Origin: Escherichia coli
Lineage (GTDB): Bacteria; Pseudomonadota; Gammaproteobacteria; Enterobacterales; Enterobacteriaceae
Strand: one strand, 5' to 3'
DNA: 64,000 nucleotides
NCBI RefSeq assembly: GCF_013315695.1
Contig: NZ_CP054353.1
Shown here: piece after piece, positions 2 through 55,903 of the stretch
How positions within the stretch are numbered: position 1 is the stretch's first letter
Layout: every line of letters begins with the position of its first letter
The notes under the pieces: model-generated
Database searches by the model: none
What the model was told of the DNA's origin: nothing
Seen by the model: the letters and a program-made list of their open reading frames with translations, nothing else
Translations under genes and position numbers: made by a program

Positions 2-213
2 ACGAAACGGCGTGTATCGTGCATCACTTCTGGTGCGGTAGAGACAACCAGCAGAGCGCATATCGAGGCGATGCCAATGGTGTCGAGCAATATGCCTATC
101 GTGCCACGTTTGGTTGGGCGGGCATTACCCACACGCAGGCGCAGCGGCAAATAGCGGAAGCAATAATTCGCCGTGCCAACCAGTAACCCAAGCAGCAAAA
201 CCTCATAGCTCAT
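1..213 (-). CDS. ygaH: AzlD-like small subunit of branched-chain amino acid exporter; N-terminal part only, gene runs off window start
   Basis: ATG at 213 (minus) overlapping ygaZ stop; hydrophobic translation; synteny downstream of ygaZ. Confidence 0.6.
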
Positions 214-940
214 CGGGCGCTCCTTGCCAGAATGCCTGGATTAACGCAGTGAGGCAGCCACAGACAATGCCTGCCAGAATGGCGACGGGAATAGAAAATA
301 GCGTTACGCCTGCAAGGGCACCAACTAACGCTGCGGTAACGCAAAGAGATTGTTTGCGCTGGAAAGAGGCGAGCAGGAAACTCATAAAGAGTGCCGGAAG
401 CATAAAACCTAATGCTGCTTCAACGGCGGGATATCCTTGCAGCAAGCCGCTGCCGGAGAATGCCCCTATTACCGTACCAAATACCCACGATGACCATGAA
501 CTGAAGGCAATGCCGATCATCCAGTTTTCGCTCCAGCGGCGATTATTGCGTACCAGTTTTGCGGTTGCGGCGGCAAAAACCTCATCCGTCAGGCCAAACG
601 CCCACAGGGCGGTTTTCGATTTTTGCAGACGCTGAATAATACGGCTACGCAGTGACGGGCCATACAAAACATGGCGAACATCCATTGCCATGACGGTCAG
701 TGCAGCAACCCACAAACTACTCCCGGCTGCCAGCATCGCGGTAATGACGAACTGGCTCGCGCCTGCATAAATGATGCAGGAGAAAAAAACGCTTTCGAGA
801 GGAGAGAATCCCAGACGGGTCGCATTCAGACCGAACGCAAAGGCCACCGGAATATAACTAATAACAATCGGTAAACTGTCTTTGCATCCTTCCATGAAGG
901 TCGCCGAACCAGGAGCAGGCTGTGGAGTAGGGCTTTCCAT
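203..940 (-). CDS. ygaZ: AzlC-family branched-chain amino acid (valine) exporter subunit
   Basis: 245-aa polytopic membrane ORF; synteny with ygaY/proX. Confidence 0.85.
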
Positions 941-38573: not shown

Positions 38574-39161
38574 GGGACACCTCCACCACCGGCAGACGGG
38601 CAGCAAGGGAGAGCACATAGTCACGGACAAGGGAACGGCGGGCACTGCGTTCATCACCGGCGACGGTGCGAAGCATGCAGATACGGGGATGACGGTCTGC
38701 GCGACGGACAGCCGCAAACACAAAGACAAATTCAGGGTGTGAAGGGGTAAGGGTTGTAGCCATGATGGCAGCCTCCGTTAGATAGCAGGTTACGCTATCG
38801 CCGGAGTTTCCACGCTCGATGGCGATAGCCCAGACGGGGGTGGAAATACCGGCTCTAACGGATACCGGCCAGCCCGGAGGCTGCCCCGCCTGAGCTACCA
38901 TTGACTCTGCGGCATAATGAGCGGACGCGGGCAGGATGCACGGAGTTCCATCTGCTCGACTGACCACACACCACACCATAATCTGGCGCTCTGTGGCGTT
39001 GATTGCGACACAAAAAAAGACGCATGGCGCGTCATATGTCGCCGTTAGATTGCTCGGGTTTCCACGCCCGGCTGCCGATTTTGCGACAGCGGAAAAACTA
39101 TATCCGCAAATGCCGGAAAAAGGCAAGCCAGAAAAAGGGACTTTTTGCAGAACAGGCATCA

Positions 39162-41285: not shown

Positions 41286-41858
41286 ATGGAAAGCACAGCC
41301 TTACAGCAGGCCTTTGACACCTGTCAGAATAACAAAGCAGCATGGCTGCAACGCAAAAATGAGCTGGCTGCGGCCGAACAGGAATATCTGCGGCTTCTGT
41401 CAGGAGAAGGCAGAAACGTCAGTCGCCTGGACGAATTACGCAATATTATCGAAGTCAGAAAATGGCAGGTGAATCAGGCCGCCGGTCGTTATATTCGTTC
41501 GCATGAAGCCGTTCAGCACATCAGCATCCGCGACCGGCTGAATGATTTTATGCTGCAGCACGGCACAGCACTGGCGGCCGCACTGGCACCGGAGCTGATG
41601 GGCTACAGTGAGCTGACGGCCATTGCCCGAAACTGTGCCATACAGCGTGCCACAGATGCCCTGCGTGAAGCCCTCCTGTCCTGGCTTGCGAAGGGTGAAA
41701 AAATTAATTATTCCGCACAGGATAGCGACATTTTAACGACCATCGGATTCAGGCCTGACGCGGCTTCGGTGGATGACAGCCGTGAAAAATTCACCCCTGC
41801 GCAGAACATGATTTTTTCGCGTAAAAGTGCGCAACTGGCATCACGTCAGTCTGTGTAA
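41286..41858 (+). CDS. psu: Psu-like polarity suppression / capsid decoration protein
   Basis: 190-aa ORF following delta. Confidence 0.75.
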   Translation: MESTALQQAFDTCQNNKAAWLQRKNELAAAEQEYLRLLSGEGRNVSRLDELRNIIEVRKWQVNQAAGRYIRSHEAVQHISIRDRLNDFMLQHGTALAAALAPELMGYSELTAIARNCAIQRATDALREALLSWLAKGEKINYSAQDSDILTTIGFRPDAASVDDSREKFTPAQNMIFSRKSAQLASRQSV

Positions 41859-41921: not shown

Positions 41922-42021
41922 GCATGCGTTTTCCTGCCTCATTTTCTGTAAACCGTGCCATTCCCGGCGCGGTCTGAGCGTGTCAGTACAACTGCATTAA
42001 AACCGCCCCGCAAAGCGGGCG

Positions 42022-42040
42022 GGCGAGGCGGGGAAAGCAC
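42022..42040. other. cos site 19-mer GGCGAGGCGGGGAAAGCAC (P2/P4-type cohesive end)
   Basis: exact 19-mer as remembered for P2/P4 cohesive ends; located between psu and cargo/int. Confidence 0.5.
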
Positions 42041-42074: not shown

Positions 42075-44033
42075 TTAAAATCCATCAAGTAGCTGATTGA
42101 TACCATTGCTCTCATCACAATTTATTTGCTCTAACTCAAATAAAGCACTGTCGTACTTTATTTGGGGAGTGTTTTCAAATGACAATAAAGATTCGATTAG
42201 TCTTATTTCTTTATCTTTATTTATGTCTTTAAGTGAGTCTAAAGTTAAATTGAATTTAACTTCGGGTTGTTTTCCTACTTCCATCATGATATTTGACTCC
42301 AACTCTGGATCAGTATTGAAGAATCGATGTGTCTTATGGAAATAACTAGGTTTTCTTGATTTTAAAATACTTAGTATATCCGACTTGATAGTGCTTTCCC
42401 GTGCTATCACAAGCCAATGGTTGGCAACCCCTGTGATGGTGGTAATGATGTGGGAGCCATTTTCACTTAGTTCATTAAAGGCTCTTAAGTCACCCTTGAA
42501 AAAATCATTTAGCAACTCATTTTCTTTATCTTTATCAAAAAGGTAAATTATTGAATTGCCGGCTAATGATATTTCAGCCTTGGTTTTTATAGTATCGCAA
42601 TTAAATTGCGCGGTCTCATTTTTTAATTCTTCGTAAGATGATTTTAAGTCTAAAAGCAAGCATTTTATTATACTTGATCTGAAAGATGAGTAATCAATAT
42701 CAGCACAAAGTGAAAATAAATTTCTGTGACGAATGGATTCAGGGCTGTAATATAGCTTTGTTAATATTTCTTTTTGGCGTTCTTTTGTGTCACGACAGAT
42801 AAACATAGCTGCAAAATATTCCATTAATGATTTGTGTGACCAACGAATAATAGCGCCTTCTTTGACAAATAATGGAACGGTTTCAATTAAGTCCTGAATA
42901 AAAAGAGATGGTGAAGTTGATATTCCGGGAATTTTTGAAATGATATTTTGCAATGTTATTTGCAGATCGTCTTTCGTAAACTCAATTTTACCTCCGTCTT
43001 TCAAACACCAAAAACCTAATCTCCTTAAGACCTGATGGAAGTCAGTGGAGTCTAGCTTAGAAAATTTTTCTCTAACATAACCAAGTTCTTTAGTTAAATC
43101 ATGAGACTCATACAAAGCGTCAAATACTTGGCTATAAAATAACTCTCTTTTTCTTGGTATTATCGGTTTGAATTTATATGCACAAAATAATAATGAAACA
43201 TAAAGAGGTGTGGATAAAAATTCATTTAGATTATGACCATTCTCCAGTCGTAATCCTTTAATTAATTGAGATGAAATAGGGCCACGTCCATCATATCGAC
43301 GTAATAGATCATACGCTTGATTCGTTTCTAATGGGTTGATTTTAAATCTTGAGAAACCATGTAGTTCTGATAAGAAATTATCATGACGAGAAGTTATAAT
43401 TATTTTGCTTTCTGAGAAATTATTAGCAAAGGTACTTAGTAAATTTACGATCTTGGATTTGAGTTGTTGTGGGATTTCATCTATGCCATCGAAAAGATAA
43501 ATAAAAGGGATTTTTTTGAGGCAGTTGTCTGAAATGTCTTCTCCTAAACCAAGTTGATGTTTCACCTGTAGCGCAAAATCATAATCTTTAGCACGTCGTA
43601 ATTCAATGTATATTGGAATGTATTCCTTATTAGCGATGCAATCTAAAGCAATTCTTTTCATTAGGGTGGACTTACCCATTCCTGCTGAGTCAGTGATTAA
43701 TATATGATTGAAATTATCTAATAAATCTGCATTGTCTTTTATTAGGCATGTGTATGGTTTTTTTTCATTATCGTAATAAATGCTCATTGGCTCATAAATA
43801 TCTAGAAGCTCTACTGGAGTATTTTGAAAAGCTAAGGTATTCACAAGGGAGCATTGCCCTTTCACATTTGATAGGAAACGTTCAAGATTTTTATTCAAGA
43901 AGCGTGCTGCATGTACATCTATTAAATAATTACGAACACTACTTTCTATGATAGGTAATATTTTATTCTTAATAACCTCCTTTGCCCATGGAAGGGATGC
44001 AGAGACTAATACATCAAGAGATACTGGTTGCAT
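42075..44033 (-). CDS. NACHT-type STAND NTPase (bacterial NLR-like), candidate anti-phage protein
   Basis: 652-aa ORF; Walker A DSAGMGKST, Walker B IYLFDGIDEI, sensor-1 KIIITSR; visibly AT-rich; starts 3 nt after int stop. Confidence 0.7.
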   Translation of the reverse strand: MQPVSLDVLVSASLPWAKEVIKNKILPIIESSVRNYLIDVHAARFLNKNLERFLSNVKGQCSLVNTLAFQNTPVELLDIYEPMSIYYDNEKKPYTCLIKDNADLLDNFNHILITDSAGMGKSTLMKRIALDCIANKEYIPIYIELRRAKDYDFALQVKHQLGLGEDISDNCLKKIPFIYLFDGIDEIPQQLKSKIVNLLSTFANNFSESKIIITSRHDNFLSELHGFSRFKINPLETNQAYDLLRRYDGRGPISSQLIKGLRLENGHNLNEFLSTPLYVSLLFCAYKFKPIIPRKRELFYSQVFDALYESHDLTKELGYVREKFSKLDSTDFHQVLRRLGFWCLKDGGKIEFTKDDLQITLQNIISKIPGISTSPSLFIQDLIETVPLFVKEGAIIRWSHKSLMEYFAAMFICRDTKERQKEILTKLYYSPESIRHRNLFSLCADIDYSSFRSSIIKCLLLDLKSSYEELKNETAQFNCDTIKTKAEISLAGNSIIYLFDKDKENELLNDFFKGDLRAFNELSENGSHIITTITGVANHWLVIARESTIKSDILSILKSRKPSYFHKTHRFFNTDPELESNIMMEVGKQPEVKFNLTLDSLKDINKDKEIRLIESLLSFENTPQIKYDSALFELEQINCDESNGINQLLDGF

Positions 44034-44036
44034 GAA

Positions 44037-45245
44037 TTATACCTTATTTTCTACGTTTAAATTTTTGACCTTAAGTCCCCACCAGTTCATTAAATCGATT
44101 CTGGTATGTAAATATGTTGAGCGGTTATATGCTCTTCTAACTTCGTTTTTGTCAGAGTGCGCTAAAGCAGCTTCAATGACATCTGGGTTAAAACCTCTTT
44201 CATTCATGGCTGTACTTGCTATTGAACGTAGACCATGAGCAACCAGCTTCCCGCCATAACCAATACGTTTTAAAGCAGCATTAGCAGTTTGGCTATTCAT
44301 TGGCTGTTTTGGGTCATTTCTACTGGGAAAAACATGTTCACGATGAGCACTGATTGGTTTCATTACCTCCAGAATCTCTATTGCCTGAGGTGATAAAGGA
44401 ACAATGTGTTCCCGCTTAGCTTTCATCCGTTCGGCTGGAATAGTCCAGAGCTTTGCGTCAAGATCGATCTCTGCCCAACGAGCACCGGAAGCTTCAGAAG
44501 GGCGCACAAGGGTCAGAAGCTGCCACTCAATTAGACAGCGAGTCGAAACAGAGAGGTTCGACATCACCAAAGAGCGCATGAGTTTTGGTAATTCTTCAGG
44601 TCGTAGCGTTGGCATGTGTTGCTTTTTGGGTTTCTCAAATGCCATACCAATACCAGATGCCGGGTTTGCATCAATCAGGCCAGTGTTGACGGCGTAGATC
44701 ATGATTTCGTTAATACGCTGCACCAGTCGACGTACAGTCTCTAGCGCCCCACGTGCTTTGATTGGCTCAAGGGTTTCAACTAGTGTTCGGGCTTTGATTT
44801 GCTGGACAGGGATCTCCCCGATGACAGGGAATACGTCTTTTTCCAGTGACCGCCATATATCTTTAGCGTAATCGGGTGTAACGCTTTTGCTTTTGAGCTG
44901 GAACCAGTTAGCGGCGACCGTTGAAAAAATACTGTCCAGAGCGATTTGCTGCTGTTCCTCTGCAACTTCGGCCTGAATTTGCGGGTCAATTCCGTTGGCT
45001 AACAAAGCAAGGTAATCCGCTCTTAACCGTCGAGCATCAGCAAGTGAAAGGGCGGGGAAAGCACCAAGCCCCATCATTGTCCGCTGTTTTGTTGCTGGAC
45101 GTTGATAACGGAAACGCCACAACTTCTTACCGTTCGTTTTAACGAGCAGAAAAAGACCATCGCCATCATGTAACGTTAGATCCTTTTCTAACGCTCTAGC
45201 GCGCAGAACTTCTGTGCTGGTCAGGGGGCGTGTCGTTCTTGCCAC
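44037..45245 (-). CDS. P4-type tyrosine integrase
   Basis: 402-aa ORF; conserved R...HxxR...Y catalytic pattern near C-terminus (AHGLRSIAST, Y in RRAYNRSTY); adjacent to ssrA 3' fragment. Confidence 0.9.
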   Translation of the reverse strand: MARTTRPLTSTEVLRARALEKDLTLHDGDGLFLLVKTNGKKLWRFRYQRPATKQRTMMGLGAFPALSLADARRLRADYLALLANGIDPQIQAEVAEEQQQIALDSIFSTVAANWFQLKSKSVTPDYAKDIWRSLEKDVFPVIGEIPVQQIKARTLVETLEPIKARGALETVRRLVQRINEIMIYAVNTGLIDANPASGIGMAFEKPKKQHMPTLRPEELPKLMRSLVMSNLSVSTRCLIEWQLLTLVRPSEASGARWAEIDLDAKLWTIPAERMKAKREHIVPLSPQAIEILEVMKPISAHREHVFPSRNDPKQPMNSQTANAALKRIGYGGKLVAHGLRSIASTAMNERGFNPDVIEAALAHSDKNEVRRAYNRSTYLHTRIDLMNWWGLKVKNLNVENKV

Positions 45246-45429: not shown

Positions 45430-45474
45430 TGGTGGAGCTGGCGGGAGTTGAACCCGCGTCCGAAATTCCTACAT
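45430..45474 (-). other. ssrA: 45-nt copy of the ssrA (tmRNA) 3' end: att core at junction of the two prophages
   Basis: reverse complement reads ATGTAGGAATTTCGGACGCGGGTTCAACTCCCGCCAGCTCCACCA (tmRNA T-arm and acceptor with CCA); upstream tmRNA body absent. Confidence 0.7.
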
Positions 45475-45589
45475 ACCATTTTCACTATAACAAAAACATT
45501 AACTTGCGTTTAAAATCATCAAGTTAGTATTATCTTATGTTTGTCCGTTTTACTCATTTTTAATGCTCTGTCGCCAATCTGTCGCCACA

Positions 45590-46240
45590 TTATCCGCTGC
45601 TTGAGTTGAAATCTGTGGGTTTACGGAGATTAGATCTTATGGTTTTTTCAGCGATACGAATAGTCGAAAATTTATGCAGGTTCATCAGTGCTATACAAAT
45701 CCCAAGTGCAAAAAAGTAGCTGGACATTCCTAATCTTTGCATATCAGTAAGTTTATTAATTTTCTCTAAAATATGTTGGGTTACTAATCCTTCGTATACA
45801 AAAGGTATGGAAGTTATAAAACCGCCAATAAAATAGAATGTTAAGCTTATCAGCTTTATAGATTTTCTATATATCCAAAAGCGATATCTTTTTTTTGTCC
45901 ATTTAAATATTTGTTTTTCACTACTAATAGAAATTAGTTTTTGACACTTGCTATAGTTATCAATGTCATTAACTGGATCGTTAACACCTAAAAGAATCTC
46001 TCTCTGTTCTGGAGTTAGGTTCTTATCTTTTGTTATTGCAGCAATACCATAATTATATGCAACTTTCTTGATTTTGGGATCTTCAGTATTCTTATATAGA
46101 TTGTATGCAAACTCGCTAATGTTTTTGCGCGAGTTGAAAATCTTATCTTTGGGGAAAACCCAGCCGGATCTTACCGCGAGCATCTGTATGATCGGGGTAA
46201 TTATCGCGACAGAATACTTAATTATCTCGTTTATGTTCAT
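45590..46240 (-). CDS. hypothetical membrane protein, prophage cargo between att and int
   Basis: 216-aa AT-rich ORF with hydrophobic segments; starts 15 nt after int stop on same strand. Confidence 0.5.
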   Translation of the reverse strand: MNINEIIKYSVAIITPIIQMLAVRSGWVFPKDKIFNSRKNISEFAYNLYKNTEDPKIKKVAYNYGIAAITKDKNLTPEQREILLGVNDPVNDIDNYSKCQKLISISSEKQIFKWTKKRYRFWIYRKSIKLISLTFYFIGGFITSIPFVYEGLVTQHILEKINKLTDMQRLGMSSYFFALGICIALMNLHKFSTIRIAEKTIRSNLRKPTDFNSSSG

Positions 46241-46254
46241 GATCCATTGTTTAC

Positions 46255-47271
46255 TTAAATTAAGTTATAAAGAGGGTTTTTTGTTACTGCATCCTCCAGG
46301 TGGTCTGGAGAGAAGTGTGCATAAATCATCGTCATTTTAATATCTGAGTGCCCTAAAATATCACGTAAAACGAGTATGTTCCCACCGTTCATCATAAAAT
46401 GGCTGGCAAATGTATGGCGCAGGACGTGGGTGCATTGGCCTTCCGGTAGTTCAATACCGGCCCGTTTTACCGCCCGTTCAAAGGCTTTTCTGCATGGTGT
46501 GAATAATTTCCCTCGGTTTTTGGGTAGCTCGTTGTACAGATCCTGAGATATCGGTACGGTACGGTTTTTTTTACCCTTGGTCTTTGTATAGGTAATCCGG
46601 TATTTCGATAGTTGATGGCCCTGCAGGTTTTCAGCTTCACTCCAACGAGCACCGGTTGCTAGGCATATTTTTGCAATCATTAGCAGACTGGGGCTTTGAG
46701 AATCAGCACAGGCATCCAGCAGACGTTTAATTTCCTCCGGGGTTAGGAACGCCAGTTCACCCTCCGTAATTTTAAATGTTGGAAGCCCGGCAAGCGGGTT
46801 GGGGGCTGACCAGTGGCCCAGCTTTTTCAGTGTACCAAAAACAGATGATAGGTTGCGCTGTTCAAGGTTTACCGTGCGGGGCTTAACGGGTGACATGAAC
46901 GAGCCGTCTTCATTTTGGACCTCCCCCTTTAATCTGGCTTCCCGATATTTTGTGAAATCACCTGCTGTCAGCTCAGAGGCGATGGGATCGCCTAGACCAT
47001 TACAGATAATTCTAAGTTTCGCCATCAGGCGTTTGGGGTCTGCGAGTGTTTGACCATATAGGGAATACCACTGCTCAATCACTTCTGATAATCGCCGCCG
47101 ATCTTCCTTCTCACCAAGCCATGGCTTTTTGTTTACTTCGTTCATGGTGAAGTTTTCGAATGCTATGGCTTCGCCTTTCGTGGCAAATTGCTTACGCACG
47201 CGCTTGCCATTGCGTCCATTGGGATAGCACTCACACAACCATTTTCCGTTCGGCTGTTTTCTGATGGTCAT
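46255..47271 (-). CDS. P2/186-type tyrosine integrase
   Basis: 338-aa ORF; C-terminal HVLRHTFASHFMMNGGNILVLRDILGHSDIKMTMIYAHF catalytic block. Confidence 0.85.
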   Translation of the reverse strand: MTIRKQPNGKWLCECYPNGRNGKRVRKQFATKGEAIAFENFTMNEVNKKPWLGEKEDRRRLSEVIEQWYSLYGQTLADPKRLMAKLRIICNGLGDPIASELTAGDFTKYREARLKGEVQNEDGSFMSPVKPRTVNLEQRNLSSVFGTLKKLGHWSAPNPLAGLPTFKITEGELAFLTPEEIKRLLDACADSQSPSLLMIAKICLATGARWSEAENLQGHQLSKYRITYTKTKGKKNRTVPISQDLYNELPKNRGKLFTPCRKAFERAVKRAGIELPEGQCTHVLRHTFASHFMMNGGNILVLRDILGHSDIKMTMIYAHFSPDHLEDAVTKNPLYNLI

Positions 47272-47272
47272 A

Positions 47273-47905
47273 TCAAAGGCTCTTAATGATTTTCAGTGCA
47301 CGGCCTACTACCTCAATGTCATCCAGGCCACACTCAAACGATGAATCATCCTGATGCACTACTAATCTGTTTCCCGGGAGTCGAGTCAATTTAACAATGC
47401 TTTTTATCCCGTCGATATCGACTAACCACATACCATTCACTGGTGGTGTTTGGTTGCGATCTATTAAATAAGAATCACCAGAAGTAGTCACCAGCAGTAG
47501 GTTGCTTGAGTCTGAGGGGAGTATGCTGCTATCAATGATTGCTTTTCCAGCATCGACCAATAAACCACCGTTGAGAGTCGCCTTGTCAATTTCAGGAGAT
47601 ACTAGTTCAGAAAGAGGTACAACCTTGCTGGAGTTCACGGAATTGATATTTTTTTTAGGTTCAATGTTTGGACCTGGCTCCCCCTGTCCGGTGGTTAGCC
47701 ACAGTAAAGAAACTCCTGTTTCCAAGGCGCACTGAATCACCCACTCTGCAGGAAAACTATCTCTTAAGTATCTGTTTGCCATGGTGCTTTTTGATGCGCC
47801 TAAGTGATCGCAAAGTTGCTGTCTGGACTTGAAATCATAGGCTGCCATTAGTCTATGGATAGCTTCTCTTCCCCCTGTATTCTCTCCAGCCTTTACCTGT
47901 ATCAT
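47273..47905 (-). CDS. CI-type lysogeny repressor (N-terminal HTH, C-terminal oligomerisation/S24-like domain)
   Basis: 210-aa ORF divergent from apl/cII; HTH LGASKSTMANRYL. Confidence 0.7.
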   Translation of the reverse strand: MIQVKAGENTGGREAIHRLMAAYDFKSRQQLCDHLGASKSTMANRYLRDSFPAEWVIQCALETGVSLLWLTTGQGEPGPNIEPKKNINSVNSSKVVPLSELVSPEIDKATLNGGLLVDAGKAIIDSSILPSDSSNLLLVTTSGDSYLIDRNQTPPVNGMWLVDIDGIKSIVKLTRLPGNRLVVHQDDSSFECGLDDIEVVGRALKIIKSL

Positions 47906-47922
47906 TTTTTAATCCTGTTGAC

Positions 47923-47970
47923 GTATCAAATATTGGATCGTAGTATCTCGATGTATCAAATATTGAATCA
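47923..47970. promoter_or_regulatory. lysis-lysogeny switch region with two 18-bp direct operator-like repeats GTATCAAATATTG(G/A)ATC
   Basis: repeats at 47923-47940 and 47953-47970 between divergent cI and apl; TTGACG -35-like hexamer adjacent. Confidence 0.4.
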
Positions 47971-48024
47971 ATTAAAACGAGATAAAACGACGTAAACCAA
48001 ACCTTAATCGGGAGATACTGCACT

Positions 48025-48267
48025 ATGAGCACTGATATTTCAATTCGTGTACCAAAAGAGATGGCTACGCCTGCAGAGTTCGCGGAATGGGAAGGTATCT
48101 CCCGCGGCTCCGTGTATCAAAAAATTCACCATGGTCAGCTTGCTAAATACATGGTCAAGAAAGAAAAAAATAAAGGCCGCGTAAACCTTCGTTATCTGAT
48201 GTACAAAACTGATCAGGTCCGTGAATCCCTCGGTCATTCCAACTTCCGCGTCATTGTTGGTAAGTAA
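48025..48267 (+). CDS. Apl/Cox-like excisionase-regulator
   Basis: 80-aa ORF first in rightward early operon, divergent from cI. Confidence 0.5.
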   Translation: MSTDISIRVPKEMATPAEFAEWEGISRGSVYQKIHHGQLAKYMVKKEKNKGRVNLRYLMYKTDQVRESLGHSNFRVIVGK

Positions 48268-48299
48268 GTTCAATTATGGGAACTTTCTAAGGGGGCACC

Positions 48300-48809
48300 A
48301 TGTTTGATTACAAGATTTCCAAACATCCGCATTTCGATGAAGCCTGTAGGGCTTTTGCACTGCGTCACAACCTGGTGCAACTGGCAGAACGTGCAGGCAT
48401 GAATGTACAGATTCTGCGGAACAAGCTGAACCCAGCTCAGCCTCATTTATTAACCGCACCAGAAATCTGGCTGCTTACCGATCTGACTGAAGATTCAACG
48501 CTGGTAGATGGTTTTCTGGCACAGATTCATTGTCTGCCATGTGTACCGATTAATGAGGTGGCAAAAGAGAAACTGCCACATTACGTCATGAGTGCAACCG
48601 CAGAGATCGGGCGTGTTGCTGCAGGTGCGGTATCTGGCGATGTAAAAACCTGTGCCGGTCGTCGTGATGCTATCAGCAGCATTAACTCTGTAACACGACT
48701 GATGGCGCTGGCGGCTGTTTCATTGCAGGCCCGTTTACAGGCTAATCCTGCGATGGCGAGTGCAGTTGATACCGTGACTGGCCTCGGTGCTTCATTCGGT
48801 TTGCTGTGA
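48300..48809 (+). CDS. phage CII-like regulatory protein (186 CII family)
   Basis: 169-aa ORF at cII position. Confidence 0.6.
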
Positions 48810-48983
48810 GGTGCTTATGCTGACGAAAGAACCATCATTTGCATCGCTGCTGGTAAAACAAAGCCCGGCAATGCACTACGGTCACGGCTGGATCATGGGT
48901 GAGGATGGTAAACGCTGGCATCCGTGCCGTTCACAAGATGAATTGCTGTCTGAATTGACCACGGGGAAACGGAGAAAGTCAAA

Positions 48984-49208
48984 ATGTATGCAGCGGAAAG
49001 TGAAGTGGTTTATCAGTTTCGTTACAGAGGGGAGAGTTATTCAGTACCTGAAGATGATTTGCTCTGTTGTTATCCGTCGTTGTCGGGCGATGGCAGTTAC
49101 TTTTTCACGCTAAAGGATGGGACGTTTTTACGAGGAGAGCAGGTTAAAGAAACGATACGAAAAAATGTATCTCCTCTCGAACGTTACCGTAAGAACAAAG
49201 AACAATAG
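48984..49208 (+). CDS. hypothetical early protein
   Basis: 74-aa ORF in early operon; overlaps a less protein-like 108-aa ORF. Confidence 0.3.
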   Translation: MYAAESEVVYQFRYRGESYSVPEDDLLCCYPSLSGDGSYFFTLKDGTFLRGEQVKETIRKNVSPLERYRKNKEQ

Positions 49209-49230
49209 TTGCGTTTTGGGGATATGAATT

Positions 49231-49572
49231 ATGGCAATTAATGGCGCTGCAGCGACTGTTCCATTAAGCCCCGGTGAACGCCTGAATGGACTTAATCATA
49301 TTGCGGAGTTAAGGGCGAAAGTATTTGGCCTTAATATTGAGTCAGAGCTTGAGCGGTTTATTAAAGATATGCGTGATCCACGGGATATCAATAATGAACA
49401 AAATAAACGGGCACTGGCTGCCATATTCTTTATGGCAAAAATTCCAGCTGAACGTCATAGCATCAGCATTAATGAGCTGACCACTGACGAAAAGCGGGAG
49501 TTGATTAAAGCAATGAATCATTTTCGTGCAGTGGTGAGCTTATTTCCCAGACGGCTAACCATGCCGAATTAA
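49231..49572 (+). CDS. hypothetical early protein
   Basis: 113-aa ORF. Confidence 0.4.
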   Translation: MAINGAAATVPLSPGERLNGLNHIAELRAKVFGLNIESELERFIKDMRDPRDINNEQNKRALAAIFFMAKIPAERHSISINELTTDEKRELIKAMNHFRAVVSLFPRRLTMPN

Positions 49573-49633
49573 CCAACTAATGAAATTAATGGCGTAAACC
49601 CGCCGGGCATCCCTTTATCTAAATTCAGGAGAA

Positions 49634-49873
49634 TTGATTATGCGTAATATTGAAACCCTCTCGACTAAAACCGGACCGGATGACGCAGGGCTTAATATTT
49701 TACTGACAGAGGCTCGTCTGGAAGAACGCCGGGCAAGGGCTGAAGCAATGGCAGCTCGCCTTGATAGCCTGGCGTGTCATATCACATCCCGCCAGCTAAA
49801 CCACGTCGAAGCGGCAGAACTGCTGCGTGTAACTGCTGAAGCAATCCAGAACGAAGCGCAGGAGATCCACTAA
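49634..49873 (+). CDS. hypothetical early protein
   Basis: 79-aa ORF; stop overlaps next start. Confidence 0.4.
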   Translation: MIMRNIETLSTKTGPDDAGLNILLTEARLEERRARAEAMAARLDSLACHITSRQLNHVEAAELLRVTAEAIQNEAQEIH

Positions 49874-50100
49874 TGGCTGATGCAATGGATCTCGTACAGC
49901 AGCGCGTTGAAGAAGAACGCCAGCGCCATATTCGTGCTGCCCGTGCCAAAACACCGGGCGTGTCTCGCGTGCTTTGTATTGAATGTGAAGCGCCAATTCC
50001 GCCAGCACGACGCCGCGCCATTCCGGGAGTGCAGCTTTGCATTACCTGCCAGGAAATCGTAGAGCTGAAAGGCAAACATTACAACGGAGGTGCTGTATGA
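49873..50100 (+). CDS. TraR/DksA-family C4 zinc-finger protein
   Basis: 75-aa ORF with CIECEAPIP...CITCQ zinc finger. Confidence 0.6.
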
Positions 50101-50399
50101 CAAGGGCAGTGCGTATCCATCAATTAAAAATTGCACCTAAGTATTTCAACGCTGTGGTTGCAGGTCAAAAGACGGCTGAACTTCGTAAAGACGATCGTGG
50201 CTATAAAGTTGGTGATGTTCTTTCTCTTTGCGAATGGAAGCATGGCGTATTTACGGGTAGGGAATGGGCCGCTGTTATCTCTCATGTGCTTCCGGTTAAT
50301 GACGTCATGGCAGTTTCAGAACAATGGGTGATGCTATCAATTCGCCCATTAACTCCATTAGAAGCTTTGGGATATGTTATTGCAGGAGGTGCTGTATGA
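50097..50399 (+). CDS. small ASCH/DUF3850-like protein
   Basis: 100-aa product from [17 protein letters not shown]. Confidence 0.4.
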
Positions 50400-51253
50400 G
50401 CACCATCCTGAAATGGGCAGGTAATAAAACTGCCATTATGTCCGAACTGAAAAAACATCTTCCTGCTGGCCCGCGACTGGTTGAACCTTTCGCGGGTTCC
50501 TGTGCTGTGATGATGGAGACGGATTACCCCAGCTATCTTGTTGCGGATATTAATCCTGATTTAATCAACCTCTATAAAAAGGTTGCTGCTGATTGTGAAT
50601 CGTTTATATCTCGCGCCAGAGTTTTATTTGAGATCGCAAACAGGGAGGTGGCTTATTACAACATAAGGCAGGAGTTTAATTACTCAACTGAAATTACTGA
50701 TTTCATGAAAGCGGTATATTTCCTGTATCTAAATCGTCACGGTTACCGTGGTTTATGTCGCTATAACAAGAGCGGGCATTTCAACATTCCCTACGGTAAT
50801 TATAAAAATCCGTATTTCCCTGAAAAAGAAATTCGCGCATTTGCAGAAAAAGCCCAGCGAGCAACGTTTATCTGCGCCAGCTTTGATGAAACGCTGGCGA
50901 TGTTGAAAGCGGGGGATGTGGTGTATTGCGATCCGCCGTATGACGGTACGTTTTCCGGCTATCACACTGACGGCTTCACTGAAGATGACCAGTATCACCT
51001 GGCATCTGTTCTTGAACATCGGTCATCAGAAGGACATCCGGTCATTGTTTCTAACAGTGACACATCCCTGATCCGTTCGCTGTATCGCAATTTTACTCAC
51101 CACTACATCAAGGCAAAACGCAGCATCGGTGTGGCAGCTGGCGAGGGTAAATCAGCAACAGAAATCATTGCTGTTTCCGGGCCGCGCTGCTGGGTGGGAT
51201 TTGATTATTCGCGTGGCGTGGATAGTTCTGCCGTGTACGGAGTACGTGCATGA
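50396..51253 (+). CDS. DNA adenine methyltransferase (Dam-like, phage-encoded)
   Basis: product from [11 protein letters not shown]; catalytic DPPY motif in [10 protein letters not shown]. Confidence 0.8.
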
Positions 51254-53664
51254 GTCATGCCGATATGAACAACTGCTGCGGCTTTAACGAAGCTGCCGCA
51301 TCGTTCTCATGGAACAGCCCGAAAAAGGCCATTAACCCTTATCTGGACCCGGCGGAAGTTGCGCCGGTTTCTACGCTTTCAAACCTGATCACTCTGTACG
51401 CTGCCGATAACGAGCAGGAACAGCTGCGCCGTGAGGCGCTGAGTGATCAGGTCTGGGAGCGTTATTTCTTTAATGAATCCCGTGATCCTGTCCAGCGCGA
51501 AATGGAGCAGGATAAGCTCATTAGTCGGGCAAAGCTGGCGCATGAGCAGCAGCGTTTTAACCCGGACATGGTCATTCTGGCAGACGTCAGCGCCCAGCCC
51601 TCCCATATCAGCAAGCCGCTGATGCAACGTATTGAATACTTCAGCAGCCTTGGCAGGCCAAAGGCTTATTCCCGCTATTTGCGTGAGACGATTAAGCCAT
51701 GTCTGGAACGGCTGGAGCATGTACGCGACAGTCAGCTATCCACATCTTTTCGCTTTATGGCAAGCCATGAAGGGCTGGACGGCCTGCTGATTCTGCCTGA
51801 AATGAGTCAGGATCAGGTGAAACGCCTGTCCACCCTTGTTGCTGCGCATATGAGCATGTGCCTTGATGCAGCTTGTGGCGATTTGTATGCCACCGATGAC
51901 GTTAAGCCAGAAGAAATCCGCAAGACATGGGAAAAGGTGGCAGCAGAAACCCTGCGACTGGATGTCATACCGCCTGCGTTTGAGCAACTCCGCCGGAAAA
52001 GAAACCGCCGTAAACCCGTGCCATATGAACTCATTCCGGGTTCGCTGGCGCGTATGTTGTGCGCCGATTGGTGGTACCGGAAATTATGGAAGATGCGTTG
52101 CGAATGGCGGGAAGAGCAGTTGCGTGCTGTTTGCCTGGTCAGCAAAAAAGCATCTCCCTATGTCAGCTATGAAGCCGTGATGCATAAACGTGAGCAGCGC
52201 CGTAAGTCGCTGGAGTTTTTCCGTTCTCATGAACTGGTGAACGAAGACGGCGACACGCTGGACATGGAGGATGTGGTAAACGCCAGCAGCAGCAACCCTG
52301 CGCATCGCCGCAATGAGATGATGGCCTGTGTTAAAGGTCTGGAGCTTATCGCGGAAATGCGCGGTGACTGCGCCGTTTTCTACACCATCACCTGTCCGTC
52401 ACGTTTCCATTCCACGCTAAATAACGGCAGGCCCAACCCGACCTGGACAAATACGACGGTAAGACAAAGCAGTGATTATCTGGTCGGCATGTTTGCTGCA
52501 TTTCGTAAGGCGATGCACAAAGCCGGATTGCGCTGGTATGGCGTGCGGGTGGCTGAGCCGCATCATGACGGTACAGTTCACTGGCACCTGTTGTGTTTTA
52601 TGCGCAAAAAAGATCGCCGCACCATTACTGCTTTGTTGCGTAAGTTTGCCATTCGTGAAGACCGCGAGGAGCTGGGTAATAACACGGGACCACGCTTTAA
52701 GTCTGAGCTGATAAACCCGCGCAAAGGTACGCCAACAAGCTACATCGCGAAATACATCAGTAAGAACATTGACGGGCGTGGTCTGGCTGGCGAGATCAGC
52801 AAGGAAACGGGTAAATCCCTGCGTGATAACGCTGAATACGTTAATGCCTGGGCGTCTCTGCATCGTGTTCAGCAATTCCGCTTCTTTGGCATTCCGGGGC
52901 GTCAGGCTTACCGTGAACTGCGATTGCTGGCTGGTCAGGCGGCAAGGCAACAGGGGGACAAAAAAGCAGGTGCGCCGGTACTGGATAACCCGCGCCTTGA
53001 TGCAATCCTGGCTGCTGCTGATGCTGGTTGTTTTGCCACCTACATCATGAAGCAGGGCGGCGTACTGGTTCCCCGCAAATATCACCTCATCAGAACTGCT
53101 TATGAAATCAACGAAGAACCGACCGCATATGGCGATCACGGTATTCGTATTTATGGCATCTGGTCACCCATTGCAGAGGGCAAGATCTGCACTCATGCGG
53201 TGAAGTGGAAAATGGTTCGTAAGGCCGTTGACGTTCAGGAGGCGGCAGCCGACCAGGGCGCTTGCGCCCCTTGGACTCGTGGCAATAACTGTCCCCTTGC
53301 TGAAAATTTGTACCAACAAGGGAAAGACAAATCAGCTGATGGAGATACCAGAACGGATATCACCCGCATGGATGACAAGGAGTTGCACGATTACCTGCAC
53401 AGTATGAGCAAAAAAGAGCGCCGGGAACTGGCAGCAAGGTTACGCCTGGTGAAACCGAAACGGCGTAAAGACTACAAACAGCGAATTACAGATCATCAGC
53501 GACAGCAGCTCGTGTATGAACTGAAGTCCAGGGGATTTGATGGCAGCGAGAAAGAGGTCGATTTACTGCTTCGCGGCGGCAGTATTCCGTCAGGAGCAGG
53601 CCTGCGTATCTTCTATCGGAACCAGCGTTTGCAGGAAGATGATAAGTGGCGAAACCTGTATTAA
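51250..53664 (+). CDS. replication initiation endonuclease (P2 gpA-like, rolling-circle)
   Basis: 804-aa ORF; HxH metal motif (VHWHLL) and tyrosine motif YIAKYISK. Confidence 0.8.
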
Positions 53665-53816
53665 TTACGCGGGTTAACAATTCGTGCTCTTAATAATACC
53701 AGGCATATCAGGCCGATGAACGTAAAAAAACGTTTTACATCAGTAAGATTATTATATACTGTAAATATAAACAGTAGTTATTTATACAGTATTTCTTTGG
53801 TGTTATAGGAGGAAAG

Positions 53817-54005
53817 ATGCAGGACTATTTTTTGGAGTCTTTGAAGCTCCAGCGCATTGATTTTTTTCTTAAGCTTGTAGCGGCTAGTGAGTGTAGTGAT
53901 GAAGAGAAGGGGCTGGCTTTGCAGTGGGTTTCTGAACTGACAGATGAACTTATGGCAAAAATCAGAACCCACGAATACAACCGCTCAATGGATGTCATCA
54001 GTTGA
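53817..54005 (+). CDS. hypothetical small protein
   Basis: 62-aa ORF upstream of DinI-like gene. Confidence 0.3.
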   Translation: MQDYFLESLKLQRIDFFLKLVAASECSDEEKGLALQWVSELTDELMAKIRTHEYNRSMDVIS

Positions 54006-54015
54006 GGTGACTTTT

Positions 54016-54249
54016 ATGCGCATTGAAATAATGATCGATAAAGAGCAGAAGATTAGCCAGTCTACCCTGGACGCCTTTGAATCCGAGCTTTACCGCAATC
54101 TGCGCCCCCTGTATCCCAAAACGGTAATTCGTATCCGTAAAGGTAGCTCTAACGGTGTGGAACTGACCGGACTGCAACTGGACGAAGAAAGGAAACAAGT
54201 AATGAAAATTATGCAGAAGGTGTGGGAAGACGACAGCTGGCTGCATTAA
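54016..54249 (+). CDS. DinI-family protein
   Basis: 77-aa product MRIEIMIDKEQ...VWEDDSWL resembles DinI (MRIEV...WESADDWF). Confidence 0.6.
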   Translation: MRIEIMIDKEQKISQSTLDAFESELYRNLRPLYPKTVIRIRKGSSNGVELTGLQLDEERKQVMKIMQKVWEDDSWLH

Positions 54250-54519
54250 GAAACGTTGCTGGCGTCTGAACTTGCTTCTGGCGTCAGCAAGGTTGAACAA
54301 CGAGCTATGCGAGGCGTTAGTGTCAATTTGTTACCTTAACCACTATATATGCCAGGAAATTAACAGTTCTTAAGAAACCGCTTGCATGATCGAGCGCATT
54401 GAACTTAAGTTTAAGTAACGAAATCAACAGATGATATTGTTGTCTAAATTTTAAAGATAATCTGTTGAGGTTGTAGGCGTCGGAGTGTAGACTTCCGCGC
54501 CATGTGAAAAGGGGGAGTT

Positions 54520-54735
54520 ATGTCAAGCATCGCCGCATTTAGCCTGGGTAACCCAGTTGAACGTCTGGCAAGGGTTCTTAAAGAGAACCAGGACAAACTC
54601 AATCTTAGTAAAGATGGTTTTGTGTCCGTAGACTTGTCTAACAAAAGAGCAATGGATGCCATCAAGGCACAGATGGATAAGCTTGAAGGCATCAAAACGA
54701 GCACTGTAAAAGAGAAAACTAATAGAACCAGATAA
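54520..54735 (+). CDS. hypothetical small protein, translationally coupled to next gene
   Basis: 71-aa ORF; TAATG stop/start overlap with 280-aa gene. Confidence 0.4.
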   Translation: MSSIAAFSLGNPVERLARVLKENQDKLNLSKDGFVSVDLSNKRAMDAIKAQMDKLEGIKTSTVKEKTNRTR

Positions 54736-55577
54736 TGGCAACATTACTTTTAGCAGTGATTTTGGTTAGTGGTTTTATTTATGTAAACCTATCACTTTCA
54801 ACAAGATACCGATATAAGCGTTCCAACGGCTGGGACGCTTATTTTTTTGTGGCTGCCTGGGGTATCGTTTTTTTTCTCCTTGGCGGTTTTTTCACCTTTA
54901 TTTTGAACGTCAGCGGAGGGTTTCGTTGGCTGGCTAATGCCTTGAATCTAACACCTGACAGTTTTAACGGCATGTTGTCTTCATCGAAAGACAAACTTCA
55001 AAGAATAAATGAAATCAAACAGATAGCATGGGTTATGATTTCAATTGTCCTCGCTGCGATTTCAGGTTTTGGAAATAAGTTACGCACATCACGTGGAGAT
55101 CGTCGCTGGGATGCCTTAGCTAAAGCTGTGGGTAATAACGCTTTCGAATCATTACTCATGGAAGCGTCCGCAAGACAGTTTCCGATCATAGCAACTCTGT
55201 CGTCTCGCAAAATCTATGTTGGTCTTGTTACTTGTCCGGCGTTAGAAAACGGGCTTTCAGAACACCTTGAACTTCTCCCGATGTTAAGCGGATATAGGGA
55301 TAAAGATGATCTAACGATTAGTATCACGACTAACTATCACCAACATTATCTTGATAGTGGTGTGATAAGTGGAATGTCTCGGCTTAATATCGAAGATTTC
55401 CGTGTGCTCATACCAAAAGATGAGGTTGAAACAATTTCGTTTTTTGATACTGAGACATATAACAAATTTAAAGAAAATGAAGCCAGGGATAGAAAGAACT
55501 GTCGAAAGATTGGTAGTAAAAGTGCATCTTCGCGCAGCAAGCGTGCAGCAGATGCTGAGTCAAATGATCGTGCATGA
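54735..55577 (+). CDS. hypothetical membrane protein (about 3 N-terminal TM helices plus soluble C-terminal domain), prophage cargo
   Basis: 280-aa AT-rich ORF at tin/old position after gpA. Confidence 0.5.
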   Translation: MATLLLAVILVSGFIYVNLSLSTRYRYKRSNGWDAYFFVAAWGIVFFLLGGFFTFILNVSGGFRWLANALNLTPDSFNGMLSSSKDKLQRINEIKQIAWVMISIVLAAISGFGNKLRTSRGDRRWDALAKAVGNNAFESLLMEASARQFPIIATLSSRKIYVGLVTCPALENGLSEHLELLPMLSGYRDKDDLTISITTNYHQHYLDSGVISGMSRLNIEDFRVLIPKDEVETISFFDTETYNKFKENEARDRKNCRKIGSKSASSRSKRAADAESNDRA

Positions 55578-55625
55578 CTATGCTGCATGAGATCGCATGA
55601 TCGTTTGAGGATCGTTTTTGCTAAG

Positions 55626-55649
55626 GCCCGCCAGAACTGGCGGGCTTTT
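55626..55649 (+). terminator. rho-independent terminator after 280-aa gene
   Basis: gcccgcca-gaac-tggcgggc hairpin followed by TTTT. Confidence 0.55.
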
Positions 55650-55694
55650 GCGTAGATCATGCACCTGCATGAAAACTACTACATAAAGCGGGCA

Positions 55695-55713
55695 GGCGTG
55701 GCGGGGATACGAG
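55695..55713. other. cos-like site of the P2-like prophage (GGCGTGGCGGGGATACGAG)
   Basis: 14/19 identity with satellite cos 19-mer; upstream of portal gene region. Confidence 0.35.
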
Positions 55714-55903
55714 CGCGCGTTGGGATGATAATGTCCTTTCGAATGTAAGGCAGAGTATGTTATTTTTACTCTTGGTTGCTTTGTATAGTTCGATAAAATT
55801 ATTATATATTTAGTATGTGATATATTGATGTCGATGGTGACTGGTTGTGGATGAAGCTAAAAACAAAAAGGCATGATGCGATTTATTGAAGGAATGATGA
55901 TTA

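Follow-up and report, generated by a model that had tools for sequence, protein, structure and literature searches.

Our reference among described bacterial NACHT proteins is bNACHT11 (WP_114260439.1), the solved structure of which is PDB 9ORF. This protein forms an ATP-bound heptamer in which a C-terminal tail (residues 633-639) is required for oligomerization and docks into the neighboring protomer; its SNaCT domain binds unrelated phage proteins by beta-augmentation, and its N-terminal MDPIT extension causes plasmolysis, with protection being abolished by substitutions in that extension, including D2A and P3A (bioRxiv 10.1101/2024.12.17.629029). Every characterized protein of clade 14 answers to lytic phages (Kibby et al., bioRxiv 10.1101/2022.07.19.500537). 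The AVAST (Avs) proteins are likewise P-loop STAND NTPases that act as single-protein phage sensors, and the N-terminus of Avs2 is MEPIS-like (Ibarlosa et al.), but Kibby et al. placed the NACHT proteins apart from AVAST. As for genomic setting, the psu-int locus of P4 is an experimentally supported reservoir of defense systems (Rousset et al. 2022).

Identity of the gene and its place in a P4-like satellite

We analyzed a window of 64,000 nucleotides from Escherichia coli (contig NZ_CP054353.1), in which the ORF list and the translation bear out an ATG-started ORF of 652 aa plus stop (Table 1). Its product has the same residues throughout as WP_001183326.1, an annotated CDS in NZ_OZ547117, and this accession is bNACHT22 of E. 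coli ECOR36, assigned to clade 14 in Tables S1 and S2 of Kibby et al. Consistently, the first 399 aa printed in their Table S2 match our product, and window positions 45429-45031 match exactly the 399 nt that are printed of their ECOR36 insert. The insert that Kibby et al. cloned contains int as well as bNACHT22 and is the same DNA as found in the window; they recorded a predicted two-gene operon for it. The same accession is labeled 'NACHT' among the psu-int hotspot cargo of P4, with at least 24 entries, in Table S1A of Rousset et al. (2022), and a text search of the literature for the accession returned nothing beyond the Kibby and Rousset supplements. The novelty implied by the first-pass annotation was thus lost, as the protein had already been listed, cloned, phage-tested and recorded as hotspot cargo; with protein, clade and P4 hotspot position in the literature, the gene is not novel and its discovery value is small.

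Table 1. Features of the bNACHT22 locus, in window coordinates
Feature	Coordinates	Strand	Basis and remarks
psu, other hotspot flank	41286..41858	+	phrog_6366 Psu, E 4.6e-100
Terminator-like GC-rich hairpin followed by T run	42003..42022	-	Just past cos, downstream of NACHT gene; consensus scan only, site count of the region no higher than in shuffled sequence
cos of P4-like satellite	42022..42040	+	Exact match to GGCGAGGCGGGGAAAGCAC; single in window, 0 expected by chance
bNACHT22 gene	42075..44033	-	Product identical to WP_001183326.1
Conserved C-terminal tail, aa 639-652 (...ESNGINQLLDGF)	42078..42119	-	Family conservation
SNaCT5 domain, aa 446-638	42120..42698	-	Pfam PF22711, E 3.4e-7; hypervariable, putative phage sensor
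NACHT module, aa 63-445	42699..43847	-	Pfam NACHT, invariant motifs, Foldseek, hhalign to bNACHT11 family
Walker B, DGIDE, aa 182-186	43476-43490	-	
Walker A, AGMGKST, aa 117-123 (GMGKST, aa 118-123)	43665-43685	-	
N-terminal helical extension, aa 1-62, starting MQPVS	43848..44033	-	AF2 helices; putative death effector
P4-like tyrosine integrase (int)	44037..45245	-	phrog_1 integrase, E 1e-69; immediately upstream of NACHT gene
ssrA 3'-end copy (att repeat), int-side satellite border	45430..45474	-	Sequence reading

The window holds, in order, int, the NACHT gene, cos and psu, and both PHROGs and the annotation of an identical locus support the earlier reading of this arrangement as the psu-int hotspot of a P4-like satellite. 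The int ORF ends at 44037, so that the NACHT start codon follows after 3 nt, as had been noted before, and the 19-nt P2/P4 cos sequence sits 34 nt past the NACHT stop codon, in keeping with the claim that the gene ends close to cos. In the identical locus psu is annotated as a polarity suppression protein; beyond it lie delta-like, sid and alpha primase genes (PHROGs and the same annotation). Rfam hits were confined to a C4 antisense RNA and isrK at other places in the satellite, with none in or next to the NACHT gene. On the int side, similarity to ssrA-integrated satellites ends at position 45474, and a P2/186-like prophage lies in tandem with the satellite in the window. The AT-richness ascribed to the gene was likewise confirmed, its GC content being 0.327 versus 0.467 in int and 0.563 in the satellite core. 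Among 5426 complete E. coli genomes, only 24 carry the bNACHT22 gene, while almost every one of the 5426 has matches to parts of the surrounding 13.5 kb. The bNACHT22 gene, a NACHT-type, immune-sensor-like ATPase gene, is therefore cargo of the psu-int hotspot of a P4-like phage satellite, with a composition foreign to the backbone.

The transcript carrying the NACHT gene is probably supplied by int, and a scan of the sequence between the two genes scored no sigma-70-like promoter. From reading of the sequence, a TATAAT 3 nt before the NACHT ATG was dismissed as a promoter of its own, since it comes without a usable -35 box and is too close to serve the ORF.

Domain architecture and family conservation of bNACHT22

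The profile search and structural comparison proposed in the first-pass annotation both upheld the NACHT assignment. Pfam NACHT (PF05729) matched aa 113-247 with an i-E value of 6.5e-8, with weaker scores for nSTAND3 (2.7e-5) and NB-ARC (only 0.43). All three motifs named earlier (GMGKST, DGIDE and the sensor-1 TSR, aa 214-216) are present and either invariant or at least 90% conserved in a family alignment of 69 homologs reaching down to about 36% identity: A117-K121, T123, D182, G183, D185, E186, S215 and R216 are invariant, and S122 and T214 are kept in at least 90% of members. The module at aa 63-445 comprises a pre-NACHT beta element, a nucleotide-binding domain, and helical and winged-helix domains, and the best 45 PDB matches of the AF2 model (pLDDT 84.9) in Foldseek are all NLR-family chains, namely NLRC4, NOD2, NLRP3 and NAIP5 at the top, together with other NLRPs. 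By its Pfam match and its predicted fold, bNACHT22 is a NACHT-clade STAND NTPase.

The matches to mammalian NLRs (E values of 6e-12 to 1e-9 over about 450-550 aligned columns, at 12-18% identity) reflect a common NACHT fold with nucleotide-binding, helical and winged-helix domains; bNACHT22 differs in having neither an LRR sensor nor a CARD or PYD effector, and in its length of ~650 aa compared with at least 900 aa. A sequence search of the PDB with bNACHT22 gave no match, nor did one with bNACHT11, as the PDB set searched was without 9ORF. PADLOC and NCBIfam returned only noise at the level of the P-loop (Avs2, 0.0021; EruA, 0.023), neither library having a model that recognizes bNACHT22. Membership in AVAST was accordingly rejected, the sole Avs match in PADLOC being that to Avs2 (E 0.0021, 13.8 bits), over 83 residues around the P-loop.

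Two statements of the first-pass annotation about the C-terminus did not hold. The region, thought to span ~350 aa, is in fact ~205 aa long, because the NACHT module, helical and winged-helix parts included, reaches about aa 445; and it does carry a nameable domain, as it matches Pfam SNaCT5. The record of Kibby et al. for bNACHT22 annotates only 'NACHT 100..477', without SNaCT. Among close homologs, identity in the SNaCT region (aa 446-638) is 30-66% versus 74-95% in aa 251-445; the respective column entropies average 2.63 and 1.08, the SNaCT value being the highest of any region. The tail that follows is low in entropy relative to SNaCT, and its residues D640, S642, N643, G644 and L648 are kept in at least 90% of the 69-member family. 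bNACHT22 ends in LLDGF, which resembles the bNACHT11 tail LKEILGF with its ILGF end.

The N-terminal extension is predicted by AF2, with good confidence, to be a three-helix unit (aa 6-12, 14-32 and 40-62), and P15, A17 and P27 in it are invariant in the 69-member family. Its MQPVS start resembles the MDPIT/MEPIS death motif, residue 2 being Q in bNACHT22 and D in bNACHT11, and 32 of the 69 family members have a motif of the form [EDQ][PT][ILVM][TS] in their first 10 aa, where the remainder of these proteins would lead one to expect fewer than 0.3. MAFFT put the N-termini of bNACHT22 and bNACHT11 in register; the pairwise score of this region beat shuffles only at p of about 0.05. The first helix shares with the bNACHT11 family a moderate hydrophobicity, and no transmembrane-like segment was seen in bNACHT22. 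Taken together, the alignments give the family the pattern that Kibby et al. described for clade 14: Walker A and B are invariant, the helical core and the C-terminal tail are conserved, and SNaCT is hypervariable.

bNACHT11 has the same plan as bNACHT22, that is, a short N-terminal extension (45 aa, compared with about 62 aa of N-terminal helices in bNACHT22), a NACHT module, a ~190-aa non-repeat C-terminal domain and a short conserved tail ending in GF. The two proteins are 27% identical by BLASTP (E 2e-28), and the bNACHT11 family aligns with bNACHT22 in hhalign with an E value of 1e-38, restricted to aa 36-463; this profile homology supports the clade-14 placement taken from the listing of Kibby et al. 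Outside aa 36-463, profile and sub-profile hhalign and hmmsearch found no homology of the sensor and N-terminal extension to bNACHT11, bNACHT12 or a bNACHT23-like protein, the hhalign probabilities against the bNACHT11 family being 1.5% for the N-terminal 62 aa and 0.1% for SNaCT. Pfam SNaCT5 was not found in bNACHT11, bNACHT12 or the bNACHT23-like protein, so no validated protein that we checked has the bNACHT22 sensor. Close homology of the gene to a characterized clade member, which the first-pass annotation had named as refuting its reading, is essentially borne out for classification, but the characterized clade-14 members are only ~27% identical to it and their sensor domains are unrelated.

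Published phage tests, subfamily relatives and proposed role

Kibby et al. challenged bNACHT22, bNACHT24 and bNACHT04 with ten phages (T2-T7, lambda-vir, M13, MS2 and Qbeta), with expression that was either native and int-linked or driven from about 100 nt of upstream DNA adjoining an IS1 end. For bNACHT22 the only effect was a drop in T3 PFU without smaller plaques, a result they distrusted, and the 'Phage Defense' field of their Table S2 is blank for bNACHT22, bNACHT24 and bNACHT04. bNACHT11 defends against T2, T4 and T6, whereas bNACHT22 is without an accepted phenotype.

bNACHT24 (WP_087889289.1, ECOR35) and bNACHT04 (WP_004899960.1, Klebsiella pneumoniae UCICRE 8) both belong to the bNACHT22 subfamily, the former being near-identical to bNACHT22 and the latter 76% identical over the 399 aa printed; both share its length of 652 aa and its N-terminus (MQPV[ST]). 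The ECOR35 locus of bNACHT24 differs in having an IS1 end, positioned 14 nt upstream of where int stops and separating int from the NACHT gene; the bNACHT04 insert begins inside an upstream gene that reads as a candidate integrase. In the Klebsiella subgroup (represented by P0006), the sensor region is only about 37% identical to that of bNACHT22. In Proteus and Pseudomonas genomes, homologs occur as lone single genes in variable regions, with no second gene conserved beside them at these loci, and a 37%-identical NACHT gene is present in Clostridium phage CDMH1. The lone homologs count in favor of autonomy of bNACHT22 and, with the CDMH1 gene, indicate that the family is not tied to P4 biology; a role in the P4 life cycle is unlikely, as homologs stand alone outside satellites.

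By analogy with bNACHT11, we infer for bNACHT22 a trigger, oligomerization, effector action and defense itself, the most likely role being that of a single-protein abortive-infection sensor. More specifically, we think it probable that bNACHT22 is a 'short' NLR-related protein of clade 14, encoded as exchangeable psu-int cargo and acting by bNACHT11-like abortive infection. [quoted passage not shown] Ring assembly would cluster the short N-terminal helical extensions, which may then harm the inner membrane or osmotic homeostasis, such that the infected cell would die before the phage cycle is completed. Points against this reading are the lack of clear defense in the published tests, the lack of profile-level similarity of the N-terminal 62 aa and SNaCT to the bNACHT11 family, the Q at position 2, given the loss of protection on D2A substitution in bNACHT11, the lack of SNaCT5 in the validated proteins that we checked, and the lack of a transmembrane-like segment.

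The published tests could also be taken to mean that bNACHT22 is an intact but silent or neutral passenger in E. coli, which has lost its defense or lacked a partner or host factor in the laboratory assay. We regard this as unlikely. It would fit with bNACHT22, bNACHT24 and bNACHT04 all being without accepted defense against the panel, with the rarity of the gene among complete E. coli genomes, and with its going unrecognized by PADLOC and NCBIfam models. However, the (near-)invariant catalytic motifs and the tail have been kept across homologs that diverge to about 36% identity, and structural relatives over the full length are present in many phyla; moreover, a fast-evolving sensor beside a conserved core is what an arms race is expected to produce, rather than decay. 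The negative assays, moreover, relied on the expression contexts given above and on only ten phages, and as bNACHT25 needs host DnaJ, dependence on a partner would not equal lack of function. The absence of a clear effect on a standard lytic panel would also suit an NLR-like sensor aimed at something other than lytic phages, which might serve conflicts among mobile elements (rival satellites, prophages or plasmids) or monitor the helper on behalf of the satellite. The P2/186-like prophage in tandem with the satellite and the participation of satellite hotspot genes in inter-viral competition (Rousset et al.) point the same way, but lone homologs lie away from P4-like elements, a related gene is carried by phage CDMH1, and lytic phages trigger every characterized clade-14 protein, which together make such a target highly improbable in our view.

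It is decidedly unlikely, we believe, that bNACHT22 is a defense NLR whose N-terminal domain does not follow the MDPIT/plasmolysis model and could, for instance, serve as an adaptor, recruiting or activating a host protein instead of acting on membranes. The 62 aa have no detectable homology to the bNACHT11 N-terminus, they are longer than its extension and are confidently modeled as a three-helix fold, and the invariant P15, A17 and P27 fall outside the MDPIT motif, all of which would favor that mode of action; yet the [EDQ][PT][ILVM][TS] motif at the N-terminus and the moderate hydrophobicity of the first helix are both common to the bNACHT11 family, and homologs have no conserved second gene beside them. 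A bolder reading can be offered tentatively, as possible though short of probable: the SNaCT5 subfamily (bNACHT22, bNACHT24 and bNACHT04) may be a functional, narrowly tuned branch of clade 14, with a sensor, of a sequence unrelated to that of bNACHT11, that recognizes proteins from phages outside the T-phage, lambda and MS2 panel. Candidates would be phages that a host with a satellite encounters, either temperate or competing with P2. The three-helix N-terminus might then be a distinct death effector, and the published negatives might stem from low int-coupled expression together with the choice of phages rather than from absent function.

bNACHT22 exemplifies an NLR-like gene carried along by a satellite beside a potential helper prophage. 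Within the most abundant bNACHT clade, the SNaCT5 branch to which it belongs is the only sampled one that has neither a trigger nor a convincing phenotype, and the sensor and N-terminus of bNACHT22 have no sequence relationship to those of bNACHT11, the structure of which is solved. A trigger for the SNaCT5 branch, if found, would probe across clade 14 the model drawn from bNACHT11, in which the SNaCT sensor is promiscuous, the tail assists ring assembly and the N-terminus causes plasmolysis.

Satellite and prophage context of the NACHT gene

The element that carries the NACHT gene (bNACHT22) is a P4-like satellite. We found that the gene starts 3 nt beyond the stop of the satellite integrase gene (int) on the same strand, that cos lies 34 nt downstream of its stop codon, and that Psu, a delta-like regulator, Sid and the alpha primase-helicase are encoded beyond cos (PHROGs and the annotation of an identical locus). 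The ORF position and satellite placement proposed in the first-pass annotation are thus confirmed, as is the AT-richness of the gene (32.7% GC, versus 46.7% for int and 56.3% for the satellite core). C4 antisense RNA and isrK are expected content for a P4-like element, and a copy of the ssrA 3' end (about 45430-45474) forms the int-side border. A scan for promoters in the stretch separating int from the NACHT gene found none. In NZ_OZ547117 and in ECOR35 (the bNACHT24 carrier), an IS1 lies between these two genes (locus L001, 11271-11968), inserted 14 nt before the int stop and just upstream of 'aaaataaggtataattcATG' (junction at window position 44050), thereby uncoupling the NACHT gene from int transcription.

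Directly beyond the ssrA 3'-end repeat, the satellite is adjoined by a P2/186-like prophage (45475-64000), which, in addition to its integrase and CI repressor, has CII, a replication endonuclease, portal, terminase and a P2-family capsid. This prophage is a potential helper, so that satellite and potential helper sit in tandem. A cargo block (54735-56923) is located upstream of its portal gene, and the att repeat and the P2-like integrase flank an AT-rich ORF (GC ~0.31), which is hypothetical in a related genome's annotation.

Features of the satellite and the adjoining prophage (window positions)
Feature	Position	Strand	Evidence or remark
NACHT ORF (bNACHT22)	42075-44033	-	652 codons, ATG start; ORF list, translation
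Tyrosine integrase, 402 aa, directly upstream of NACHT gene	44037-45245	-	phrog_1, E 1e-69
P2/P4 cos, 19 nt	42022-42040		single exact match, none expected by chance
GC-rich hairpin and T run, beyond cos	42003-42022		
C4 antisense RNA, satellite immunity region	38818-38905 or 39013-39090 (pair with isrK)	-	Rfam, 76 bits
isrK, satellite immunity region	38818-38905 or 39013-39090 (pair with C4)	-	Rfam, 72 bits
AT-rich ORF, 216 aa	45590-46240	-	no PADLOC match
P2-like prophage integrase	46255-47271	-	
P2-like prophage CI repressor	47273-47905	-	
Cargo ORF, 280 aa	54735-55577		no PADLOC match
Cargo ORF, 138 aa	55904-56320		no PADLOC match
Cargo TIR-domain protein, 200 aa	56321-56923		SAVED_TIR, PDC-S66 and ThsB-like models, E 5e-11 to 2e-4

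Domain organization and conservation of bNACHT22

All three NACHT motifs predicted from the sequence were found: GMGKST spans aa 118-123, DGIDE aa 182-186 and TSR aa 214-216. In the profile and structural comparison suggested alongside them, the NLR fold was recovered, and PADLOC and NCBIfam scans returned P-loop-level noise only. More specifically, the AlphaFold2 model, for which 69 homologs were used (mean pLDDT 84.9), best matched NLRC4, NOD2, NLRP3 and NAIP5 among PDB structures (E 6e-12 to 1e-9), and the extent of these matches (about 450-550 aligned columns) places the end of the NACHT module, with its helical and winged-helix parts, at about residue 445. The C-terminal region is therefore about 205 aa long rather than the ~350 aa first estimated, and the domain described as having no nameable motif has a Pfam name, SNaCT5 (PF22711, aa 446-638), a predicted sensor. 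PHROGs gave a full-length match to a family of unknown function (phrog_18297, E 1e-293).

In the 69-sequence alignment, A117-T123, D182, G183, D185, E186, S215 and R216 are (near-)invariant, as are many helical-core residues and, in the C-terminal tail, D640, S642, N643, G644 and L648. Identity among close homologs is 74-95% over aa 251-445, 30-66% over aa 446-638 and 50-92% in the tail, with mean column entropies of 1.08 (helical core), 2.63 (SNaCT) and 1.45 (tail). The bNACHT22 family thus reproduces the pattern of stable NACHT and fast-evolving SNaCT that defines clade 14; this architecture, fold and conservation are direct observations.

Database homologs are mostly ~650 aa long, and AFDB50 holds full-length relatives of this size in Proteobacteria, Bacteroidota and Firmicutes (TM-scores 0.7-0.98). 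Relatives at 56-84% identity occur in Enterobacter, Citrobacter, Klebsiella, Yersinia, Pectobacterium and Rahnella, and a large group lies at ~40%. In Proteus mirabilis and Pseudomonas, the homologs stand alone within variable regions, and no conserved partner gene was found beside them. Clostridium phage CDMH1 gp84 (HG531805.1 / NC_024144.1, 52391-53629), annotated as a "putative signalling/NTPase protein", is 37% identical to aa 64-464, indicating that a temperate phage of a Gram-positive host carries a relative of the NACHT module. Many K. pneumoniae relatives (among P0014-P0027) share the MQPVTLDG N-terminus but have 586 rather than 652 aa, and their BLAST alignments span only ~61% of the query, which suggests that the sensor region of this lineage was shortened or swapped.

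Published record and comparison with bNACHT11

The NACHT identification stood, but the novelty attached to it did not: the protein already has a published name, clade, construct, phage-panel result, P4 hotspot listing and Pfam-named C-terminal domain. The gene is present at ≥99% identity in 24 of 5426 complete E. coli genomes; the best match, in a P4-like satellite at ssrA, is annotated WP_001183326.1, whose CDS is identical to the window translation. Kibby et al. assign this accession to clade 14 under the name bNACHT22. According to their Table S2, the cloned fragment (3612 nt, E. coli ECOR36) has an operon of "2" predicted genes, and the 399 nt of insert printed there match window positions 45429-45031 exactly, so the published construct is the same int-NACHT-cos stretch. 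The "Phage Defense" field is blank for bNACHT22, for the near-identical bNACHT24 (ECOR35) and for bNACHT04 of K. pneumoniae (76% identity to bNACHT22 over the printed 399 aa). According to the methods of that study, in which a panel of T2-T7, lambda-vir, M13, MS2 and Qbeta was used with expression from native upstream DNA, bNACHT22 lowered T3 PFU, an effect not counted because plaque size was not reduced. In addition, WP_001183326, labelled "NACHT", has at least 24 entries among the P4 psu-int hotspot loci tabulated by Rousset et al. 2022 (PMC9122126, Table S1A); the accession was not found in those of their further tables that were searched, and so apparently lies outside their 19 tested systems. 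A literature text search for accession and name found no mention beyond these two studies.

The clade-14 protein of known mechanism is bNACHT11 (bioRxiv 10.1101/2024.12.17.629029). Its SNaCT binds several unrelated phage proteins via beta-augmentation and hydrophobic contact, ATP-bound protomers form a heptamer, and its C-terminal tail (633-639) docks into the adjacent SNaCT and is needed for oligomerization; its 45-aa N-terminal extension, which starts MDPIT, kills by plasmolysis, and substitutions therein, including D2A and P3A, abolish protection (same source). Ibarlosa et al. link this type of N-terminus to the "MEPIS" motif of Bell/HeLo-type membrane-targeting domains and Avs2.

bNACHT11 is 27% identical to the window protein over aa 38-393 (E 2e-28), and profile-profile comparison of the two families aligns aa 36-463 only (E 1e-38). 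Sub-profile hhalign detected no similarity to the bNACHT11 family for the N-terminal 62 aa (probability 1.5%) or aa 464-652 (probability 0.1%). Likewise, hmmsearch of bNACHT11-family, bNACHT12 and bNACHT23-like proteins gave nothing significant, and Pfam SNaCT5 was not found in bNACHT11, bNACHT12 or one bNACHT23-like protein; thus, no validated protein checked carries this sensor family. The N-termini read MQPVS in the window protein and MDPIT in bNACHT11, and [EDQ][PT][ILVM][TS] occurs within the first ten residues of 32/69 bNACHT22-family (QPV[ST], ET[IL]T) and 12/42 bNACHT11-family (DPIT) proteins, relative to an expectation of <0.3 from the rest of the proteins, with counts inflated by relatedness among sequences. 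The first helices of both proteins are in register (MAFFT) and moderately hydrophobic in both families, no transmembrane segment was found, and the tails end in LLDGF and ILGF, respectively.

Candidate mechanism and alternatives

By analogy with bNACHT11, bNACHT22 probably acts on its own as an NLR-like sensor for abortive infection. In this model, SNaCT5 would recognize a phage product and the NACHT module, assisted by the tail, would oligomerize with ATP, after which the clustered N-terminal helices would kill the cell via the membrane; trigger, assembly, effector action and even a protective phenotype are what we infer here. As for the last step, the first helices align but the N-terminal regions show no profile similarity, and an effector mechanism that differs from the bNACHT11 model is quite unlikely, in our estimate.

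The published assays, negative or ambiguous in outcome, count against the sensor model. They are not decisive, because expression hung on int-linked transcription (given the lack of a detected promoter between int and the gene) or, for bNACHT24, on ~100 nt of upstream DNA beside the IS1 end, and because only ten phages were tried. Alongside these assays stands the reading that the gene is a silent passenger, which we consider unlikely, if less so than a different effector. Involvement in conflicts among mobile elements, for a gene carried by a satellite beside its candidate helper, appears the least probable of these readings. The NLR-like sensor is the best-supported reading for this protein of the SNaCT5 branch of clade 14, for which the literature records no trigger or accepted phenotype.
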